Program-made: the position numbers and the translations under genes
Shown: piece by piece, positions 1 through 30,459 of the stretch
Numbering within the stretch: position 1 is the first letter of the stretch
Layout: the number at the start of each line of letters is the position of its first letter
Origin: a virus
Taxonomy: Duplodnaviria > Caudoviricetes
IMG/VR virus record: IMGVR_UViG_3300045411_000040
Coordinates: 1 to 30,500 of that record
Reading direction: 5' to 3' (one strand)
DNA length: 30,500 nt
The notes under the pieces: model-generated
Database searches by the model: none
Told to the model about the DNA's origin: nothing
Seen by the model: the letters and a program-made list of their open reading frames with translations, nothing else

Positions 1-1634
1 TTAATAATTTTTGGTTCATCATATTCACTGAGTAACTTCTTCAAATCACTATCGCCTGGCTTCGGTTTTCTCCTGGTATTCAATTCAAAACCATCATTGT
101 ATACTACAAAGAAATAGACATGCTTAAATTGTCCACCTTTCCTAAAATAGATGATATTGGTTTTTGTAGGTGTATAAGGCATAAACACCCCACGTGGCAA
201 GGAAATGACGGAGAACGTTTTTGCATTCTGCATTATCATTTCTCTAGTCTTGCCAATAACCCCACCATCATAAAGGAATGTTTCGGGGACAATCACTGCT
301 GCTCTGCCATCGGGTTTTAAAGCTCGCCAAATGTGCTGTATGCAAACCGAATCAGCATTCTTGGTGGGGATGTCATAATACCCCCCAAACTTAGTTTCTT
401 GTGAATATGGTATATTCGATAGGATTACGTTATACTTATCATTTACAGGATTTTGAAGGCTATCTATCTGGTCAATATTTGAATGCCCATCTTCAAATAA
501 AATCATGTTCATCCGAGCGATGCGTGCTGTTGATGTAAACTCTCGTCCAAATACTGTTCGTTCCCTTAATGTCTCTAAAACTGTCGGGTTTTTAATGTCA
601 ACTCGTAGAGATAAATATTTGAATGCCTCTAACAGAAAACCACCTGTCCCGCAGAATGGGTCGTAGATTGTTTCTCCATACATGGGTTTTACCAAATTGA
701 CCATTGTCCGCACAATATGCCGGGGTGTGAAATATTCACCCAAATCCTTGTTGCCATGAGTAACACTCTTAAGGAAATATTCAAAGGCATCACCCTTTAT
801 ATCTGTATCAGTAGCCAAGAAGTTTATTTGACCAATCGTTTTGACAATTTCCTGCAATGTCGACGAGTTGCGAATTGCTAATTGGGGGGAGAATATTTCA
901 CCATATTGTTCTGTTATTTTCGGCCAGACTGAATCATGCACAAAGGTATACAGTTCATCATTACTATTCTCATACTTCTCGCTGAAATAACTCCAACAAT
1001 ATTTCTCATCAATTTTTCTTGGTATGCCACGATGCTCATTCAGCCTTTCTGATTCATCAAGTAACTTAAGAAACAGGATTTCAGCAAAGGCTGAAAAACG
1101 CTCGTAGCCAAATCTTAAACCCTCTTCCCGCAATAGATTATTTGTGGCTTTGAAAATGGCTAGTAATTCATCACGTGTGTATTTAATGCCCTTAGGGGCT
1201 GACAGTAGTTCTGGGCCTTCTCTAATAAACCGCAATGCTAGAAATTGATCAATAAAATCTTGTATTTCTTCACCATCAATTTTTAGCGGTCTGTCTTGGA
1301 ATATATGCTTTGCTGTAACAAATGTATCATTGAATGCGAAGGCTAATGGGGCATTTAGTGGTTTCGCATAGCGTTCAACGGCTTGTTTCATTGCAGTATC
1401 AAGGTCTTCGCCTGGACGCTTAGCCTCAATAACGCCTAAAGGGTGTGTGGTATTTGTCTCATATAGAACATAGTCTGGCTTTTTACCACTAAATAATGCA
1501 TTCTGTTCATCTGTTCTGGCTTGTCCTTGTGTTACATCACATGTTGGGTCTTTCTCATTGAGATTCCAATGTAGATTCATCAAGCGGATGTTTATCTGGG
1601 TACGTGTGTGTTCCTCAAGTGGCGGACGAATCAT
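1..1634 (-). CDS. Fused restriction endonuclease (HsdR_N-like PD-(D/E)xK) plus N6-adenine methyltransferase (HsdM / type IIB-IIG-like); 3' end runs off the window
   Basis: Hand-translated from ATG at 1634 (G-rich SD GGGAGGGGGT upstream): MIRPPLEEHTRTQINIRL...KKPDYVLY...LGVIEAKRP, then GEYFTPRHIV, IYDPFCGTGGFL (motif I) and ILSNIPY (motif IV). The same frame is still open at base 1 (...DSDLKKLLSEYDEPKII). Absent from the ORF track because no stop lies in the window. Confidence 0.92.
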   Translation of the reverse strand, partial: MIRPPLEEHTRTQINIRLMNLHWNLNEKDPTCDVTQGQARTDEQNALFSGKKPDYVLYETNTTHPLGVIEAKRPGEDLDTAMKQAVERYAKPLNAPLAFAFNDTFVTAKHIFQDRPLKIDGEEIQDFIDQFLALRFIREGPELLSAPKGIKYTRDELLAIFKATNNLLREEGLRFGYERFSAFAEILFLKLLDESERLNEHRGIPRKIDEKYCWSYFSEKYENSNDELYTFVHDSVWPKITEQYGEIFSPQLAIRNSSTLQEIVKTIGQINFLATDTDIKGDAFEYFLKSVTHGNKDLGEYFTPRHIVRTMVNLVKPMYGETIYDPFCGTGGFLLEAFKYLSLRVDIKNPTVLETLRERTVFGREFTSTARIARMNMILFEDGHSNIDQIDSLQNPVNDKYNVILSNIPYSQETKFGGYYDIPTKNADSVCIQHIWRALKPDGRAAVIVPETFLYDGGVIGKTREMIMQNAKTFSVISLPRGVFMPYTPTKTNIIYFRKGGQFKHVYFFVVYNDGFELNTRRKPKPGDSDLKKLLSEYDEPKII

Positions 1635-1687
1635 AGAGACACCCCCTCCCTCCATGTCATTTGCTAGTGCTGTAGTGATATAATCTA

Positions 1688-2635
1688 TCATAGCACTTTT
1701 ACCTTATGTACGTGTAGTGAGGGGATAGTTGCCAAAGTGTTATAATCAGGGCAAAAGTCCCGCACTTCACAGAATCTTGTGCAGCGCCGCCCATCCCAGC
1801 GTTCCTCTTTATCGCAAATGGGGGGTAATCCCTGTTTCTCTAAAGCGGTTAAAAGTTTCTCTCGTTTAGCATGAAAGTAATCCCGTATCTCATCATCGGG
1901 TAATTTCTTTATGGGGATTGTGTAAAGTTTGTTTGTAATTCCCCGCTTTTCGGCAACCTCCAACCCTCCGTCTCGGATATAAATTCTTAACAATAAAACG
2001 TCTACGGGGAAGGTGGCATCTTGCCAGAACAGTCTATATCGGTTGAGTTGCAACTTCTCATCCTTTAGGTCTGCCATGTCGGGATTAAATCCCCAAATCG
2101 GTATCATTTTCGGGGTTCCAGCCTTTCCCCAATACCCAGAGGTTTTATAGACTTCCCCTTCGGGGTCTGGCTTCTTGCCCACCATGACAATCCCCAAAGC
2201 TCTGGCGGCGGCATAAGAACCCCAGAATTTATAATCTGACAGGACATGAATACCATCCTCGACTTCGTAATTGTCCGATAACCCTGTCATCTCCTCATCT
2301 TCTAAAAACTGTTCCAAAATACTGTGCTTCGTATCAGCACCTTCCAGTTTCTTGTGCCCCTTTGTCCCAGTGAACATAAAAACAAGGTCTTCGGGAGATA
2401 CAAAATAGTCCTGCGTTAGTCTTAAATAAGCTATCCGTGTCGGAAGGATTAACTGGGTCGTGGACGGCTTCCCTTTCCATTGCCTGACCTGTGCCATCGC
2501 CGACATTTGGGATAACGTCCCGCAGCGGCGGACATTAAAGCCATTAACCTGAATAGGCTGGCGGCATTTAGTCAGACATTCCTCATGCCTTATCTTTTCA
2601 CCATTAGGGCAGATAAAGCCTACTTGCATTCCCAA
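1688..2635 (-). CDS. Cas4/AddB-like PD-(D/E)xK exonuclease, solo phage type
   Basis: GTKGH, E..., GLSD, LSDYKF and QLNRY motifs. C-terminal Cys cluster C-x9-C-x3-C-x5-C. Confidence 0.8.
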   Translation of the reverse strand: MGMQVGFICPNGEKIRHEECLTKCRQPIQVNGFNVRRCGTLSQMSAMAQVRQWKGKPSTTQLILPTRIAYLRLTQDYFVSPEDLVFMFTGTKGHKKLEGADTKHSILEQFLEDEEMTGLSDNYEVEDGIHVLSDYKFWGSYAAARALGIVMVGKKPDPEGEVYKTSGYWGKAGTPKMIPIWGFNPDMADLKDEKLQLNRYRLFWQDATFPVDVLLLRIYIRDGGLEVAEKRGITNKLYTIPIKKLPDDEIRDYFHAKREKLLTALEKQGLPPICDKEERWDGRRCTRFCEVRDFCPDYNTLATIPSLHVHKVKVL

Positions 2636-5133: not shown

Positions 5134-6219
5134 CTATTTGGGGGGTGAATCCCCGCTTAGTGGGGTGGGCAGAAAATTACGGTCTGTGTGTAGGTGATAT
5201 TCCCAAGTACGCCCGTATGTGTTATGAACCCCACAAGTTAATTGAACAGGGCTAGAAGCCCGCCCTATGACTTCCAATGCCCATTCATCACCCGTAACTA
5301 ATGGTGGGCACATTGTGTAGTCGGCTATCGAGTTAATGTGGTCTTTCCCCCCAACGTGCCAGTGCCCGTTATAGGCATAATGGAATCCGCCAACGTAGGC
5401 GTAATATTCTTGATACTTTCGGCGTAGAGCAAATAAAGGAACGCCCTGATTAGCCCTCACTTGGTCGCCATGAATCAAAAAGAAGCGAAACCCACGGATG
5501 GTAATCAGTTGGTAGAAATCGTCAGTTACGTGAATCTTAATGTTTCTCTGATTCTCCAGTTGTTTCTCTAGTGCTTTGTAGAGGAAATTATCCCAATTGG
5601 TTCTAGGAACTGCGGTCTTATCATATTTGCCATGATTCCCCCTCACACCATACCAATCTATCTGAGATACACCCTGAGACAATGAGATTAGAAATTCGCT
5701 TAGTATTGGTACAGCGTGGTCGTGTATTTGCCCAAAAGCCCCGACTTTACATTCCTCAATATGCCCGCCCTTGTAAATAGATTCGCCATGAACCATGTCA
5801 CCCAAGGCGAACACATGTGCATTTCTGATGGGGCGGTGAAGATTGATAATTGTTTCAGTGGAATCTAAAAGATAATCCATGCGGGCTTTGTAAATGGTGG
5901 GGTTGTAGGTTGTGGTTTCTCGCCCTACATGGTGGTCGGAAAGAATAATAACAATATCTTCTTCATCTCTTTGTTTTTTCATTGCCTTGAAGGGCTTGAT
6001 TTTCAAGTCGGGATAGGGGATATACTCTTTTGCTGATTCGGCTAGTGGTGGGATTATCCCACCATTCCGCTTTATACCCCGTTCACGCATCCGCTTTTCA
6101 TAGCTGGGCTTTTCCATGCCTAATTCCCCAGCTCTCTTTTCCCGCCATTCGGGGGTAGAGGATAGATATGCCTTAACTTCAGTATCCCAGTCTTTTGTCC
6201 CTAATTTTGGTATTGCCAT
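5134..6219 (-). CDS. Calcineurin-like metallophosphoesterase with N-terminal HTH-like segment
   Basis: All five motifs: SDHH, LGDMVHG, GNHG, IHGD, GHWH. Confidence 0.88.
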   Translation of the reverse strand: MAIPKLGTKDWDTEVKAYLSSTPEWREKRAGELGMEKPSYEKRMRERGIKRNGGIIPPLAESAKEYIPYPDLKIKPFKAMKKQRDEEDIVIILSDHHVGRETTTYNPTIYKARMDYLLDSTETIINLHRPIRNAHVFALGDMVHGESIYKGGHIEECKVGAFGQIHDHAVPILSEFLISLSQGVSQIDWYGVRGNHGKYDKTAVPRTNWDNFLYKALEKQLENQRNIKIHVTDDFYQLITIRGFRFFLIHGDQVRANQGVPLFALRRKYQEYYAYVGGFHYAYNGHWHVGGKDHINSIADYTMCPPLVTGDEWALEVIGRASSPVQLTCGVHNTYGRTWEYHLHTDRNFLPTPLSGDSPPK

Positions 6220-6272: not shown

Positions 6273-6890
6273 TTATATCTTTAGCTCCATAACTTCCTGA
6301 TAGCATCTTTTGGCTGCGATTTCACAATACTTTTCCTCAATTTCGATTCCAATAGAATATCGGTTTAATTTCTTGGCACAGTAACAGGTTGTGCCTGAGC
6401 CGAGAAAGGGGTCAAGAACTAAGTTGTTTTCACTTGTAAACTTTTCGATTAAAGCCAAAGATGGCTCAATTCCCTGTTGCCATTCATGGCTTATTTTTAC
6501 CCGCTTGCTTTTTATAACATCAGGACACCATCTGGTTTTATTCGCCTCACCGTTACTGAAGACAACAATGGGTCGCCAACGTGAGTGGGTATTTGTCTTA
6601 AAATATCTTAAATCACTACTGAGTTGTAATACGCAATAAATCCAAAAGTAATGCCATCTCCTGAATGAATAAATAATACTCGGTACAAAATTGCTGCCAC
6701 CATATATAGCAATAAAGCCGCCTTCTTTAATAACTTGAATAGTGCCAAGATAATCATAAAATTTCTTTGCAGACTTATTCCACGGCGGGTCGGTCAGCAC
6801 CAAGTCCACCTTAACATCCAACTGTGGCAATATCTCTTGGCAATCACCGTGATAAATTGTTACCCATTTATCCTGATAGTAGGGTTTCAC
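6273..6890 (-). CDS. Orphan DNA methyltransferase, N4-C/N6-A beta class
   Basis: Motif IV TDPPW precedes motif I LDPFLGSGTT, then GIEI. GTG start overlaps the upstream stop. Confidence 0.9.
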   Translation of the reverse strand: MKPYYQDKWVTIYHGDCQEILPQLDVKVDLVLTDPPWNKSAKKFYDYLGTIQVIKEGGFIAIYGGSNFVPSIIYSFRRWHYFWIYCVLQLSSDLRYFKTNTHSRWRPIVVFSNGEANKTRWCPDVIKSKRVKISHEWQQGIEPSLALIEKFTSENNLVLDPFLGSGTTCYCAKKLNRYSIGIEIEEKYCEIAAKRCYQEVMELKI

Positions 6891-7165
6891 CCCTTTATTC
6901 CATTTCGGTATCTCAGTAATAAAAAAAGAATCGCCGCATTCGTCAGCAAGTTAGCTGATTGTGCAGCGATAAACACAGGTGCTTGTATATAAATTGCGTG
7001 GTATAGATAACATGACAAAGCACAGAATAAGAACACATATGTCCATATCGAAACTTTAGTATGCTTATGTTTTAGGATGGAATATAGCTGGGGAATCGGA
7101 ACGCAGATACCTACCACAAGCCCCGCATATCCGACAATATACCCGAAGGTTAGATATTCTGGCAT
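6887..7165 (-). CDS. PQ-loop / SemiSWEET-like three-TM membrane protein
   Basis: 92 aa, three hydrophobic helices, IPQLYSILK PQ motif after TM1. Confidence 0.75.
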   Translation of the reverse strand: MPEYLTFGYIVGYAGLVVGICVPIPQLYSILKHKHTKVSIWTYVFLFCALSCYLYHAIYIQAPVFIAAQSANLLTNAAILFLLLRYRNGIKG

Positions 7166-7282
7166 GGTAATTTTTATGAAAATGATTATTGTCTATTATA
7201 CACCCCATGTCAAGTCTTGGCTATTCTTTAGCCGTCTTTCGGGCAGCGGTCTAGTTTTGTGGCTTTACTCATAAAAACCCCT

Positions 7283-7825
7283 TTATGCCTTCTCAGGATG
7301 ATTACATGACTTTGTGGGGCATTGTAGGGCTACTTGAGAATCCTTGTCTATAAGATAATTTAAGGATAACTCTCTAGGCTCATCTGCCCGATAAACTGTT
7401 TTGATTTTATAGTGCGGGTTTGTGCCAATAGCCCATATATCATTATTCTGTGGTTCTGCCTCGAAGGCGCCATTGGGTGTTAGAATAACTAGCCATGCGT
7501 GATAGCCTTCAGTAGTTTGTCCCCAGACCTCAAAACAGCCATTAGCCTGATATTTGATGAAGGCTTTATCACAAGCATGGTGAGCGAACTTATCGCAATC
7601 TATACCCCTTTCGGTTGCTGTGATGGGTTTATAAGCTGGCATCTCGGCATGTGCCTCTGTTATGATGTCTATCCAGATATTTTCATCAGGGAACCAGAAA
7701 TAATCATCCCTGAAACCAATGGTGCATGTTACGCCAGCAGCCTTGAATATATTGGCGACTTCAATAGCAGAAAGCACATGCCAAGTTATAGGCGTTTGAG
7801 GTTTAAAGTTAAACAATTTGCACAT
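7283..7825 (-). CDS. Papain/transglutaminase-like cysteine protease (MOA Agglutinin_C-like)
   Basis: DCDKFA...YHAW...EAEPQN Cys-His-Glu triad pattern. Confidence 0.65.
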   Translation of the reverse strand: MCKLFNFKPQTPITWHVLSAIEVANIFKAAGVTCTIGFRDDYFWFPDENIWIDIITEAHAEMPAYKPITATERGIDCDKFAHHACDKAFIKYQANGCFEVWGQTTEGYHAWLVILTPNGAFEAEPQNNDIWAIGTNPHYKIKTVYRADEPRELSLNYLIDKDSQVALQCPTKSCNHPEKA

Positions 7826-8394
7826 TACTTAAACACCCGTATTTTGCTTATTGTGAAGGGGATAGTCTCACAGAAATTGGGAGTGCAGATGATGGGATGC
7901 TTGCCAACTTCGAGGTCTTTGTATTCCCCGTCATTCTGTGGTTCGATATACATCATCTCGACCTCGCCATCCTGACAAATCTCAAAAGCTACGGCGGTAT
8001 GTCCGCCGCTGGGGTCTTCCGCAACGTTAATTACCACAAGCCAAGCGGGATAACCAGCCTGCCAAGCGTTATGAATTAGGTCGGCAGCGAAGCTATCACA
8101 TTGGTAATCTACAGTGTAGGGATTCTCGTTGGTCTTATCTGTCTCCAGAAAATCGAGTATTGTTTGACGTTCTGGATACAGAACACACAGGTCATAATCT
8201 ATCTGGCACTCTAGGGCATCCTTGAAACCCACTGTATAGCCGATATGATAACTTGTGTCTAAGGATTGCTCGTTTAGCTTGATAGCCCCATATCGCCCCT
8301 CGGTAAATCCCCTATCATAACAAGCCCAACCAATCAGGATACAGAAGATGAGTAGGGCAAGTATAATGGCGAAAAGGGTAATCGGTCTTTTCAT
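7825..8394 (-). CDS. Membrane-anchored or secreted papain/transglutaminase-like cysteine protease
   Basis: N-terminal hydrophobic helix, then QCDSFA...GHTAVAF...YIEPQND. Confidence 0.65.
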   Translation of the reverse strand: MKRPITLFAIILALLIFCILIGWACYDRGFTEGRYGAIKLNEQSLDTSYHIGYTVGFKDALECQIDYDLCVLYPERQTILDFLETDKTNENPYTVDYQCDSFAADLIHNAWQAGYPAWLVVINVAEDPSGGHTAVAFEICQDGEVEMMYIEPQNDGEYKDLEVGKHPIICTPNFCETIPFTISKIRVFK

Positions 8395-9120
8395 CTAATC
8401 GCCCCAAAACTCAGCGTATCTTCCGTTTAAGTATGCGCCTACGTTTTCCATCCAATCAAGGGCTACGCCGTAGTTCTGCCTACCCATGTAATCGGCTTTT
8501 TGTCTCAGGCTTGTCCATTTACAAGAAAGTGAAGTTTCACACGTAGTGCAACCCTTATCATCGTTCAAATGTTCGGCAGCATAGAGAACGGCATCCTTTT
8601 CCAGGAAGTCATCCAGCTCATTCTTTAAGCCCCAAATGGACGAGAAATAGCGATTGACAAGTTTTTTCAGGTATTCTCCCCATGCTGGGTCTTGCCAACT
8701 ATACCGTCTTGCTCCTCTGTTCCATGCGTGGTAAAACTTTGTAGCGGGGTTGTTGACCGAGTAGACACCTTCTACAGATGATTCGATTTCAGCATCAAAG
8801 GCTGTTTCATTAAAGGGTTCTTTGATTACTTTCTCCTCAACTATGTCTGCGGACACTGTAGTATTATCTACCGCAACCGCAGTATTTTTTACTACCTGCC
8901 CGCCGTTAACTTTTGGGGATTCATCCTTTTTGCTGGAGCCGTTGAAGTTAAAGTTCTTTACAGCTGTATAGCCAAACCAGAATAAGAGAACTCCACCAGC
9001 CAGAGCAAACATTTTGTCTTGGTCATAATTGGCAGATGCTAAACTGAATAGGATTATCACAGCTATTACGGTAATCATCGGTTGCATTAAGCCCTTTATG
9101 AAGTTAAGTATCTTATCCAT
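8395..9120 (-). CDS. Holin-like two-TM N-terminus fused to a soluble domain
   Basis: Two TM helices ending LLFWFG, lysis-cassette position, SD AGGAGG. Confidence 0.5.
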   Translation of the reverse strand: MDKILNFIKGLMQPMITVIAVIILFSLASANYDQDKMFALAGGVLLFWFGYTAVKNFNFNGSSKKDESPKVNGGQVVKNTAVAVDNTTVSADIVEEKVIKEPFNETAFDAEIESSVEGVYSVNNPATKFYHAWNRGARRYSWQDPAWGEYLKKLVNRYFSSIWGLKNELDDFLEKDAVLYAAEHLNDDKGCTTCETSLSCKWTSLRQKADYMGRQNYGVALDWMENVGAYLNGRYAEFWGD

Positions 9121-9145
9121 TTTTACCTCCTATTTATTCTATATC

Positions 9146-9371
9146 TTAACTGGTTTTCTCCAGATTGTTGCTGCTCATTTTGTTGAACTCATGCTCATTT
9201 TGTGTAGCGGTGCACAAATGTTCGGCACGTTGCCGATAAACACAGCCTTCGATAGTGCATTTCCATATAGACCAGACAGGATTACCCGCATCATCTCGCT
9301 TTGTTATAACTCTCTTTAGCGGGACTTTATGTATTTGGCAATAAAGTTGATATGGTACGAAAACTCTCCAT
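9146..9371 (-). pseudogene. Frameshifted small Cys/His protein
   Basis: Removing one T from the T4 run at 9360-9363 joins ATG 9371 to an open frame MESFVPYQLYCQIHKVPL...WKCTIEGC...*. Confidence 0.4.
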
Positions 9372-9380
9372 GATTTTAAC

Positions 9381-9590
9381 CTACTTCCCTAAACCCAAAA
9401 CTGGGGAAACATATCTGACAAATTCCTCTCGTTGCCCTGAGTTCCATAAATCACAGGCTTTTTGTGCCCATTCATTGCCCTCAATAGCGCAAGAGGCGCA
9501 GGCTTCAAGCGCCTGAAGCACATCGGGGTTCAGCCCCAGCGCCAGATGCCGCATCTTCTGTATTTCGTTTTCAGTAAACATTTGCTCCAT
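9381..9590 (-). CDS. Small hypothetical protein
   Basis: 69 aa with CASC. TAATG overlap with the upstream gene. Confidence 0.6.
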   Translation of the reverse strand: MEQMFTENEIQKMRHLALGLNPDVLQALEACASCAIEGNEWAQKACDLWNSGQREEFVRYVSPVLGLGK

Positions 9591-9781
9591 TAACTTAGAC
9601 CCCTGAAAAATAAGGCAACCAATCCAAGCAAAATAGCGGATACAAGACCTAAAATTATCTTAGTTCTCTCATCAAGGCGGCTAACCTTTTCATAAAGACA
9701 TTTCAAGTGATTGTCCTTGATGTCAAAAACCATACCCTTTAATTCTTGTATCTCATCATTTTGCGTTCTTTTCTTTGGCAT
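9590..9781 (-). CDS. XhlA-like coiled-coil plus C-terminal TM protein (holin-like)
   Basis: 63 aa, NHL-containing amphipathic helix then IILGLVSAILLGLVALFF. First gene after the tail genes. Confidence 0.55.
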   Translation of the reverse strand: MPKKRTQNDEIQELKGMVFDIKDNHLKCLYEKVSRLDERTKIILGLVSAILLGLVALFFRGLS

Positions 9782-9796
9782 TGGAATATCCCTTTC

Positions 9797-12649
9797 TTAA
9801 ACGTCAATTAAGTATAAAATTTGTTGAAATCGTTCCCAAACTCCCCCCGCTACATTATAGGTAAAATCATAACCCGATACTCGATAATTTCGGTCTATCC
9901 CACAAGTATCATCTTTAATACTATATACATCCCATTGTTCCAACCCACAATTAGGTGGGGTAACTATCGAACTTAATTTTTGTTCCCGTTTAATTTTGGT
10001 GAGTAATCCATCTGCTACACTTTGCATACTCTCAGTGATATTAGAAGCAGAAAGAATTTGAAATTGATAACCACCCAATGCAATTTGCGTATTATCGGTA
10101 GCATCGCCATATATCGGATTGCCATCATCATCTTTGCCGATTGCTGCTATAAAGTTAGGTCGTAGCCCTGTGCCATATTTGCCAGTTAAAATATAGTGAA
10201 TAGGCGCAGCAATCCGATAACCTCTATCTGCGGTGGAAGTCTGTGAAGTCGCCCCCGTCATACTAACCACGCATTTAAAGTACCGCCCATTGCCAGTACT
10301 GGGCGCACTTGTGTCATTAAAGGGGTCAGTTACAGCGCCACTTATATTTGAATAATCGGCATCTGAATCGGCAGCAGACCTCTGCCATTGATAAGTCAAT
10401 GTGGTAGTTCCTTTATATCCCGTGTCAGTTGAACTATCCGCACTATTGCCAGTATCATTAAAGGCAACTACCTTGTAAGTTCGGGAACTGCCATTAGAGG
10501 CTGATTCCCCACTTAGGCTTAATGTAACATAGCTATACGAAGTACCATCGGAAGCCGCAGCCGTACCAGGTGTGATTGTTGGTGCTGAGGCAGCAGTATC
10601 ATCATAAGTAGCCACATTCCCCAATGTATCAAGTAGATTACTACCTTCATAAACTTTATACCCCGTTGCGCCTGTGGCTTTAGTCCACGTTATAGTTACC
10701 TTATTGGAGTAAGTCCCGTCAGTGGCGGCTACGTTGGTTGGGGCAGCAGGCTTAGTTAAAAAGGTTACTTCTGCGCCTTCGCCTGTTCCAATGGCGCTTG
10801 TAGCATAAGCTATATAATATATCGTAGTCCCCGTAGGGAGGGAGGTTAGACTTAGGGTATATGTTCCAATCCCAAAGTCGCCATCTTCATAAACATCGTT
10901 GCCATAAACCCCAGTACTTGTTCCCCACTTAAAACCCCGTCTAGTACAATTCCCCCCACTCCTCAAGTCCACTATTTCGCCATTCCCCGTAGCGGTGGTA
11001 GCTTCTATACTGGTTGCGGCATCAGTATCCACATCGGGGGTAGCGATTCGATAACCCCTATCAGCAGTCGAGGTTTGCGGGGTTGCACCTGTCATGCTCA
11101 CTACACATTTGAAATATCTACCACTTCCATCGCTAGGTGCCCCAGTGTCGTTATAGGGGTCGGTAGTCCCGCCATCTATGGCTGAATAATCAGCATCGGA
11201 ATCAGCAGCAGACCTTTGCCATTGGTAAGTTAGGGTAGTAGTACCCCGATAGCCTCGGTTATAGGCGGATGTAGCTTGTTCCGCACCTTCCGCATCTAAA
11301 ACACATTTGTAATATCTACCCTCTCCATTAGAAGCAGTTTCCCCAGATAAACTTAAGGTTACATATGATTGAGAAGTACCATCGGAAGCCGCAGCTGTAC
11401 CAGCCGTAATAGTTGGTGCTGGGGCAGCCGTATCGTTATGAGTGGAAGATGTAGCCCCAACTATATTAGAGTAATCTGTATTGCTATCAGCTGCGCTTTT
11501 TTGCCACTGATAAGTTAAACTCCCCACGCCACGATAGCCTGCATTGGTAGAGCTATCGCTACTATTACCCGTGGCATTGAAGGCTACGACTTTATATGTC
11601 CTAGATGTACCATTATTGGTAGATGTTCCACTTAAAGATAGGGCGACATGGGAAGGCGAATCGCCATCAGTAGCCACTGTAGACCCAGCCGTAATAGTTG
11701 GTGCTGGGGCAGCCGTGTCATTATAAGTAGCCACATCGCCAAGAGTGTCAAGTAAATTGCTTCCTTCGTATACTTTATATCCAGTAGCGCCAGTTGATTT
11801 TGTCCATGTTATAGTTACCTTATCGGTATAAGTACCATCGCTCGCTGCCACGTTGGTTGGGGCAGCTGGTTTGGTTAAAAATGTTACCTCATCGCCATAA
11901 CCCCAATTGCCATTATCATTTTCGGCGCAAGCCCTAACATAATATGTAGTTCCTGAATTATAAGTACCAGCATCATAATCAAATGTTTCGGCGATAAAAG
12001 TCCCTACTTCAGTCCAATTATTCGCATATCCTGAAGATGCTGGAGCCACATTGCCTGGGTCGCCATGACTTGAAGTATCCCAAACAAAACCCCGTTCGGT
12101 AATATCGGTATCATTGATTGTCGTTACTTCGCCATTCAGTGTGGCGGTGGTAGCTTCAACGCTGGAAGCAGCGGCAGTATCTAGTATGGGGGCGGCTTCT
12201 TCAATACCCCAACCAGCCGTCAGGTCATAATAAAAATTATCTGTTGTTAGTCCCGTTGGGGGGTCATTAGCGGAAAAGGTAAAGGTTGCATATGTTGCCG
12301 TTTTATACCTATAGGCGTGAGCGGCTATACCATATTGTCCAACATTGGCATTATCGAAACAAATCCCCAGCCAATAGTCGGTACTTACTGTTATAGGGGT
12401 CGAGGTGAAAGTTAATGTATTTGCCCCGCTAGAGACAGCCTGTCCCGTTTCCATTGCGGTAATTAAAGCGCCTGGTGCGCCTGAGTTATCGGCGTATAGG
12501 GCACATTTAACATTCCCTGAAGCCCCTGCCACAAATTTAAACTCAGTCATATTGCCAGTAGCTACGGCTGTCCATTTAGTTAATCTAAAAAGACCCGCTA
12601 TCTCATTTGAGCCAGAGGAAGCATCACTACCGAGAAGTTTAATTGTCAT
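9797..12649 (-). CDS. Tail adhesin/fibre with repeated Ig/FN3-like domains and a C-terminal tail-hub-like domain
   Basis: 950 aa, Thr/Ala/Ser-rich, with repeats PAAPTNVAA..VTITWTK..GYKVY and YQWQ.SAADS. Confidence 0.8.
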   Translation of the reverse strand: MTIKLLGSDASSGSNEIAGLFRLTKWTAVATGNMTEFKFVAGASGNVKCALYADNSGAPGALITAMETGQAVSSGANTLTFTSTPITVSTDYWLGICFDNANVGQYGIAAHAYRYKTATYATFTFSANDPPTGLTTDNFYYDLTAGWGIEEAAPILDTAAASSVEATTATLNGEVTTINDTDITERGFVWDTSSHGDPGNVAPASSGYANNWTEVGTFIAETFDYDAGTYNSGTTYYVRACAENDNGNWGYGDEVTFLTKPAAPTNVAASDGTYTDKVTITWTKSTGATGYKVYEGSNLLDTLGDVATYNDTAAPAPTITAGSTVATDGDSPSHVALSLSGTSTNNGTSRTYKVVAFNATGNSSDSSTNAGYRGVGSLTYQWQKSAADSNTDYSNIVGATSSTHNDTAAPAPTITAGTAAASDGTSQSYVTLSLSGETASNGEGRYYKCVLDAEGAEQATSAYNRGYRGTTTLTYQWQRSAADSDADYSAIDGGTTDPYNDTGAPSDGSGRYFKCVVSMTGATPQTSTADRGYRIATPDVDTDAATSIEATTATGNGEIVDLRSGGNCTRRGFKWGTSTGVYGNDVYEDGDFGIGTYTLSLTSLPTGTTIYYIAYATSAIGTGEGAEVTFLTKPAAPTNVAATDGTYSNKVTITWTKATGATGYKVYEGSNLLDTLGNVATYDDTAASAPTITPGTAAASDGTSYSYVTLSLSGESASNGSSRTYKVVAFNDTGNSADSSTDTGYKGTTTLTYQWQRSAADSDADYSNISGAVTDPFNDTSAPSTGNGRYFKCVVSMTGATSQTSTADRGYRIAAPIHYILTGKYGTGLRPNFIAAIGKDDDGNPIYGDATDNTQIALGGYQFQILSASNITESMQSVADGLLTKIKREQKLSSIVTPPNCGLEQWDVYSIKDDTCGIDRNYRVSGYDFTYNVAGGVWERFQQILYLIDV
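10208..12170 (-). repeat. Intragenic tandem duplications in the adhesin gene
   Basis: Two large units (~12170-11043 and ~11040-10208). Exact 32-bp repeat at 11400-11431 / 11685-11716 and exact 23-bp repeat at 10539-10561 / 11373-11395. Confidence 0.85.
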
Positions 12650-30210: not shown

Positions 30211-30238
30211 AGATAAAATAAAAAAAGGAGAGACAAAA

Positions 30239-30373
30239 ATGTTTGAAGTAATAAGACACAGCAAGGCTACAAGTTTCCAGAGATGCGGTCACAAGCATCG
30301 TTCCAAGAAAGCTGCAGAGAGGTGCCTTAAAAAACATGGCAAAGATAAGGGCTGGAAGTTAAGTAATTACTAA
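30239..30373 (+). CDS. Small basic early protein with C-x-H-x-H...C motif (44 aa, not in ORF track)
   Basis: MFEVIRHSKATSFQRCGHKHRSKKAAERCLKKHGKDKGWKLSNY*. SD AAGGAG. Confidence 0.7.
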   Translation: MFEVIRHSKATSFQRCGHKHRSKKAAERCLKKHGKDKGWKLSNY

Positions 30374-30459
30374 GTGTAAGTAACACTGCTAAAGCCATAC
30401 ACCATTCTCCCCAAGGAAAGGAGGAAAGGAGTACAAACACTTAATAGGAGGTTAAGGAA

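Follow-up and report, generated by a model that had tools for sequence, protein, structure and literature searches.

In phage Mu, the lysis genes occupy the slot between the regulators and the terminase. LapG, a chromosomally encoded protease regulated by LapD, cuts a surface protein, and Pyrobaculum, the host of Pyrobaculum filamentous virus 1, has a protein wall. MOA, a mushroom lectin like PSL1a, is a papain-like peptidase that depends on calcium or manganese, with Cys215, His257 and Glu274 as catalytic residues (PMC8244254, PMC4764322); the Pfam families PF18021 and PF18022 are now classed as papain-like (PMC10318531). It is an open question by what means tailed viruses escape from cells whose only wall is made of protein, and according to a 2024 review no hydrolase degrading the surface layer (S-layer) has been identified in archaeal viruses (PMC10791045). 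We analyzed positions 1 to 30,500 of the IMG/VR virus record IMGVR_UViG_3300045411_000040 (Duplodnaviria; Caudoviricetes), a 30.5-kb stretch hereafter called the window. It is podovirus-like, with genes for a terminase, an SU10-type capsid, an internal virion protein and the tail, all on the minus strand. The original prediction had placed a protease-based lysis system behind the last tail gene, consisting of holin-like genes and two cysteine proteases, here called A and B. Our results suggest that B is likely to act in lysis, probably as a new class of lysin; this role is supported by the position of its relatives in other viruses and by a census of wall hydrolases.

The C-D-x-F-A, H and EPQN motifs from which the proteases had been recognized proved to be conserved. 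B carries D76-C77-D-K-F-A, H109 and E124-P-Q-N and has no hydrophobic N-terminus; A carries C99-D-S-F-A, H132 and E151-P-Q-N behind an N-terminal hydrophobic segment. The catalytic Cys and His were invariant in all 94 aligned rows of the B family and all 19 of the A family, and these motifs are therefore not chance; the catalytic Glu was kept in 92 and 17 rows, respectively. C77/H109/E124 of B and C99/H132/E151 of A align with Cys215/His257/Glu274 of MOA. A profile of 94 relatives of B matched PSL1a at E 1e-15 and MOA at E 1e-13; the sequence match of A to MOA was weak (E 0.08). In the structural model of B (predicted local distance difference test, pLDDT, 86), the ten best Foldseek matches in the PDB were all MOA/PSL (E 2e-6 to 3e-4), followed by LapG (E 9e-3). 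The model of A (pLDDT 83) matched MOA at Z 9.5 (root-mean-square deviation, rmsd, 2.3; 96 residues aligned) and PSL at Z 9.0, and the next best match reached Z 6.8; protein glutaminase and N-acetyltransferases ranked in the middle (Z 6.5-6.8), with LapG at 6.7, PeiP at 5.4 and PeiW at 5.2 (rmsd about 4 for the last two). Profile alignment and fold comparison thus agree on a papain-like triad of the MOA/PSL type in both proteins. Membership in PeiW/PeiP, the lysin type to which they had been likened, was rejected, since the MOA fold match is stronger and neither Transglut_core nor the pseudomurein-binding repeats gave a Pfam match in A or B.

Neither protein scored above the threshold of PF18021 or PF18022, and for this reason A and B are called remote homologues of the MOA/PSL papain-like domain, on profile and model evidence, rather than Pfam members. 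Some relatives of B pass the Pfam cut-off, such as P0058 (35.3 bits vs 26.8). Single-sequence searches of Pfam, PHROG, NCBIfam and the PDB were uninformative for both proteins, and a putidacin match was dismissed (E 0.013, against a cut-off of 275 bits). No match was obtained by tblastn for A, B, P0058 or the L034 protein among cultured phages, or for B among plasmids. The ricin-B lectin domain had no Pfam match in A or B; the protease domain fills residues 1-148 of B, and no wall-binding domain was detected in this protein. Candidate positions in B for the ligands of a binuclear calcium or manganese site are D76 (92/94 rows) and D/E78 (94/94), but position 79 is a Lys; A is variable there.

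A and B had been described as coupled, related proteins. The coupling is present, as the stop codon of A overlaps the start of B, but they are related only at profile level (BLAST E=0.035; HHalign probability 97.6, E=3e-12). In a tree of 60 sequences the A-B distance exceeds 91% of pairs, and a recent duplication was rejected because the two lie so far apart. The proposed division into an exported and a signal-less type was borne out by their families, in which a hydrophobic N-terminus occurs in 14 of 19 A rows vs 1 of 94 B rows. Close relatives of A have lipobox-like ends (P0003, with a weak LPAM_1 match, and L002). Atlas neighbours of B fall mostly in viral clusters and those of A in Chloroflexota and archaeal clusters; two named relatives of A are archaeal. 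Among viral proteins, both models matched a protein of Pyrobaculum filamentous virus 1 best in fold. Judged from the sequences, A falls in a family that is anchored in the membrane and has cellular members, and B in a signal-less, mostly viral one. That B acts in virion assembly or entry, processing tail or ejection proteins, or shares the fold as an acyl transferase or deamidase without proteolytic activity, appears very improbable to us. B lies directly after tail genes in L010, L029, L035, L053 and L057, and the mid-rank fold matches above and weak Gln_amidase matches in 4 of 79 proteins would suit such functions; the closest matches in both sequence and fold are nevertheless proteases, and the association with membrane genes and the depletion of hydrolases, described below, would be left unexplained.

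To examine the gene neighbourhood, we used loci from a motif scan that had yielded 52 viral loci, 44 of them with true family members; the test set comprised 50 loci with matches, from which nine duplicates or near-duplicates and one weak 450-aa match were removed, leaving 40. A neighbour was counted when a small or two-helix membrane gene lay within two genes on the same strand; the predictor was a plain hydropathy window, and spurious open reading frames (ORFs) enter both the test and the control sets. Such a neighbour was found at 26 of the 40 MOA-type loci, compared with 22/141 soluble genes of the same loci and 31/152 of control contigs. For strict two-helix neighbours the counts were 12/40 vs 6/141 and 3/152. 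After removal of the six clade loci, 20/34 and 7/34 remained, still an enrichment (p 0.004 or lower). These results support the association with holin-like genes across the family. Five neighbours match holin or haemolysin models, mostly weakly: those in L042 (phrog_9987), L025 (phrog_297), L036 (phrog_937), L009 (Phage_holin_10) and L022, where a gene transfer agent holin lies three genes from the MOA-type gene. Genes of the DUF1353 family were also seen close to MOA-type genes (L053:7201-7686, L057:8748-9173).

In the window, the stop codon of the gene for the 241-aa two-helix protein abuts the start of A. Homologues of this protein adjoin a B gene in L005 (44% identity), L002 (34%) and L013 (21%). 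A profile of its soluble domain matched only its source loci and their duplicates, and homology to the neighbours in L003, L042 and L064 was not supported by the profile search. A predicted complex of B with the soluble domain scored 0.02 and was uninformative. L002 and L005 contain the 241-aa homologue together with A-type and B genes, on the strand opposite the tail genes; in L064 the order is B then A; in L003, L013 and L042 a two-helix fusion gene stands beside B and the A gene is absent. Because of these last three loci, the conserved unit is the membrane gene plus B, with A optional and dispensable in relatives and the post-tail position variable.

We further searched for canonical wall hydrolases. 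As the original prediction had stated for the window, neither the 30 window ORFs compared with Pfam nor the 36 compared with PHROG matched a muralytic family, and nor did 26 further ORFs of G001, a near-identical sister assembly (42,011 bp, linear, 88% complete) that prolongs the window at both ends; a six-frame search of G001 for 12 hydrolase families likewise gave no match. G005, which has terminal repeats, is 100% complete and carries the same trio of genes, had no match in the 12 families either. A Pfam scan of 63 ORFs of G003, G004 and G005 revealed no further hydrolase; these ORFs were selected from a list of 151 for four genomes, with two long virion ORFs added.

A census was then made with ten Pfam hydrolase families (match at E 0.001 or better). 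The carriers were 24 records of 30-60 kb, with three carriers of >100 kb and all shorter ones left out, and the controls were 25 of the 26 records of 35-60 kb that came first in three neutral 15-mer scans. A canonical wall hydrolase was present in 3/24 carriers vs 13/25 controls (11 above cut-off), where SLT matches in controls may be virion lysins. Among records at least 90% complete, the counts were 1/14 carriers vs 9/15 controls (8 above cut-off; Fisher p 0.005 to 0.025), in a comparison whose carriers are partly related and come from poorly studied hosts, in which divergent endolysins are easier to miss. Among 279 neighbour ORFs of 38 loci, canonical muramidases were found in L016 and L061 and C92 amidase-like genes in L016 and L038. 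In L061 the tail genes are followed by a single series of an MOA-type gene, a lipoprotein-like gene, a holin-like gene and a GH108 muramidase (L061:6479-8290), which looks like a two-enzyme lysis cassette, as if the MOA-type enzyme served a different layer.

The trio might instead be an accessory for envelope remodelling, shedding a receptor or adhesin in the manner of LapG for superinfection exclusion, or inactivating a host protein; we regard this as improbable. LapG follows MOA/PSL in both fold comparisons (E 9e-3; Z 6.7), A-type proteins are anchored and cellular and some have lipobox-like ends, the cassette lies among non-structural genes in L002, L005 and L013, and three chromosomal copies outside phages (below) and 14 of 40 loci lacking a membrane neighbour would fit as well. 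However, such a function would leave complete genomes such as G005 without any lysin, and neither the low hydrolase rate in carriers (1/14 vs 9/15) nor the pre-terminase position in two Mu-like prophages (below) would be explained.

For the cassette as a whole to be a lysis module, with B released via the two-helix protein to cut peptide bonds in the host envelope, most likely in a layer made of protein, the case is nearly balanced, and we lean slightly to the side of doubt. In the course of events that we infer beyond gene anatomy and fold, B would be made without a signal and accumulate in the cytoplasm, where it is predicted to be inactive. The 241-aa protein would form a hole through which B escapes; by analogy with MOA, which needs calcium or manganese, B would be switched on outside by calcium and would cut peptide bonds in the envelope, most likely in a protein layer. 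A may be an accessory, separately acquired enzyme that is tethered to the membrane and acts on the same layer from outside. The host would belong to the Chloroflexota and have an S-layer but hardly any peptidoglycan, or none. Three points lead us to prefer a protein layer as substrate: the family is present in an archaeal virus, it is found beside true muramidases, and MOA cuts ordinary peptides; the Chloroflexota and archaeal clusters of A-type sequences would be a further point for it. As a tentative extension, MOA-type proteases could form a widespread, unrecognised class of viral lysins that cut S-layers or other protein envelopes, possibly replacing endolysins in viruses of peptidoglycan-less Chloroflexota and of archaea and standing beside a muramidase in some phages of walled hosts, with the window perhaps representing a pair of one holin-released and one membrane-tethered enzyme.

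Several observations weigh against reading the cassette as a module of this kind. The 241-aa protein has no match to a holin hidden Markov model (HMM), a membrane-gene neighbour is missing at 14 of 40 loci, the census set is composed as stated above, and muramidases do occur in three of the 24 carrier viruses. The position right after the tail, true of the window, is not kept in L002 and L005, where the trio faces the tail operon. The host of the window phage is not established, and Dehalococcoides as host is unproven; Chloroflexota are suggested by the Atlas taxa alone, and these rest on few members. A GTDB scan with query A2 found no close prophage, and its sole match was one weak Puniceicoccales metagenome-assembled genome (MAG). 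In the phylum of this MAG, which is also that of G002, 5 of 301 genomes contain the MOA-type family, and all five encode 3-4 Mur ligases and 2-3 penicillin-binding protein (PBP) transpeptidases. Three of these five copies are chromosomal, outside any phage (L333:6416-7129; L334:6845-7291; L336:7069-7668). The other two lie in Mu-like prophages (L009:9665-16490, L335:1476-7427), where the MOA gene is the sole lysin candidate seen, fitting a peptidoglycan substrate. Dehalococcoidia orders 1-9 are reported to keep peptidoglycan genes and orders 10-25 to have lost them (PMC10284905), and the Dehalococcoides gene DET1070 is annotated as 'endolysin, putative' (PMC5102406). Of the refuting conditions named in the original prediction, several apply in part at the level of the family: peptidoglycan-capable hosts, true muramidases in carriers and a post-tail position that is not always kept.

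Other approaches to the host were uninformative. Capsid and IS1595 searches gave scattered best matches below 60% identity. MCM was found in 0/25 and Hjc in 0/5 records, the MCM search being unspecific, with its control matched in all 14 genomes; PF18021 had no match in G002, and the controls likewise had none. Two of the three chromosomal MOA-type genes (L333, L334, L336) have signal-like N-termini.

The order in the two Mu-like prophages is regulator, MOA gene, holin-like gene, small genes, terminase and Mu portal, and no muralytic Pfam match was obtained among their scanned ORFs. This position strengthens the lysis role, and the peptidoglycan-capable carriers weaken the tie to peptidoglycan-less hosts. 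The main rival substrate to a protein layer is the peptides of peptidoglycan: B would be an endolysin of a new catalytic family that cuts the peptide stems or cross-links in a walled host. The Mu-like prophages speak for it, lying in genomes with Mur ligases and PBPs and offering no other lysin candidate; Subdivision 4 Verrucomicrobia are reported to have peptidoglycan (PMC5303756), wall hydrolases of papain fold are described as common (PMC10318531), with CHAP, NlpC/P60 and PeiW-type enzymes as parallels, and the neighbour and census results fit it equally well. Such a substrate does not sit easily with the homologue in a filamentous virus of archaea or with the archaeal A-type proteins, nor with the true muramidases that co-occur in L016 and L061, a B protein with no detected wall-binding domain, and the cleavage of ordinary peptides by the characterised MOA. 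On balance, we consider a peptidoglycan-cutting B unlikely and prefer the protein layer.

The gene map of the region is given in Table 1. The XhlA-like gene and those for the 241-aa protein, A and B were present behind the last tail gene as predicted, but the 69-aa ORF and the startless Cys-rich frame had been overlooked. The labels XhlA-like and holin-like are justified by shape only: no holin or haemolysin model of Pfam, PHROG or NCBIfam matched the 63-aa or the 241-aa protein. The 63-aa ORF has no homologue in other loci and was rejected as a fixed part of the cassette. The Cys/His-rich frame lies between the 63-aa and 241-aa genes and, given its synonymous variants, could be a gene that uses an unusual start. 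The region is also present in lake-water metagenome runs, among the runs listed. In one of four runs examined, 6800-10000 was covered by a single contig that differed at 10 single bases, all of them outside A and B.

Table 1. Genes and open frames between the last tail gene and protein B in the window.
Feature	Position	Strand	Remarks
Last tail gene, 950 aa, fibronectin-like repeats	9797..12649	-	phrog_7440 tail, E 3e-6; context
63-aa ORF, one hydrophobic segment at the C-terminus, XhlA-like by shape alone	9590..9781	-	No family match
69-aa soluble ORF, no family match (Pfam, PHROG)	9381..9590	-	3/4 variants synonymous
Cys/His-rich open frame, candidate small gene	9146..9388	-	No ATG/GTG/TTG start; 4/6 variants (other runs) synonymous
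241-aa protein: two N-terminal hydrophobic segments and soluble Cys-containing domain; candidate holin-like partner	8395..9120	-	
Protein A, 189 aa: N-terminal membrane anchor/signal, low-confidence linker, MOA-type protease domain (C99, H132, E151)	7825..8394	-	
Protein B, 180 aa: signal-less MOA-type protease (C77, H109, E124)	7283..7825	-	

The core of B ends near residue 148 and is followed by about 32 low-confidence residues. This extension (7283-7381, minus strand) reaches about 32 residues beyond the end of close homologues, and at that point a single base separates the codon from a stop, which suggests stop loss as its origin. Directly after B, a 92-aa PQ-loop/SemiSWEET-like membrane protein is encoded at 6887-7165 (minus strand), with no homologue in the other loci. 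Three phages have a calcineurin-like phosphoesterase close to the trio (window 5134-6219, minus strand; L005:7638-8735; L002:3682-5709), and the 675-aa copy in L002 has a long insertion that by eye resembles an intein. At the end of G001, an 817-aa type I restriction-modification methylase subunit is followed by an IS1595 transposase (window 3-1691, minus strand; L007:144-2484). At 30231-30425, amid small plus-strand genes, the window has about 195 bases vs about 390 in G001. The part of the phage beyond the window encodes a radical SAM enzyme and a long hexapeptide-repeat protein (L008:3303-4244, L008:7732-8673).

A literature search, mostly of open-access papers, found none linking MOA-type domains to viral lysis, and the word agglutinin is absent from the main text of a 2025 lysin survey (PMC12596118). 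The genes are real and conserved and probably encode a new type of lysin. A protease family described from fungi thereby gains viral members, which automatic naming labels as lectins. B is a small, soluble, single-domain lysin candidate whose catalytic mechanism is known from the family, with a Cys-to-Ala exchange as the obvious control. If its substrate were peptidoglycan, B would still belong to an unlisted endolysin family, one that would explain some phage genomes without an endolysin call.

Compared with known systems, A and B are most similar to the C-terminal protease domain of MOA/PSL1a (PF18021 Agglutinin_C, PF18022 Lectin_C_term; PDB 2iho, 3phz), with which they share the fold, the Cys-His-Glu residues, the D-C-D-x-F-A and E-P-Q motifs and a conserved Gln at the position of Gln276. 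They differ in being stand-alone viral genes without a ricin-B lectin domain and in scoring below the Pfam thresholds, whereas the MOA family is described as fungal defence lectins; Tyr replaces Trp208 of MOA, and A lacks acidic residues around the Cys. PeiW and PeiP, pseudomurein endoisopeptidases that methanogen viruses use as lysins, are likewise cysteine enzymes of the papain/transglutaminase superfamily, but the similarity is at superfamily level only (Z 5.2, 5.4) and their substrate is a glycan-peptide wall. LapG is described as a calcium-dependent periplasmic protease with Tyr at the oxyanion position (PMC4764322) and has a related fold, but it shares only 12-17% identity and is not a lysis gene. 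Holin-endolysin cassettes similarly place a small membrane-protein gene beside a signal-less hydrolase; here there is no muralytic domain, the holin is a candidate only, and some members add a second, anchored protease. The lysis region of phage Mu is paralleled by the two Mu-like prophages, in which the MOA gene lies between the regulators and the terminase.

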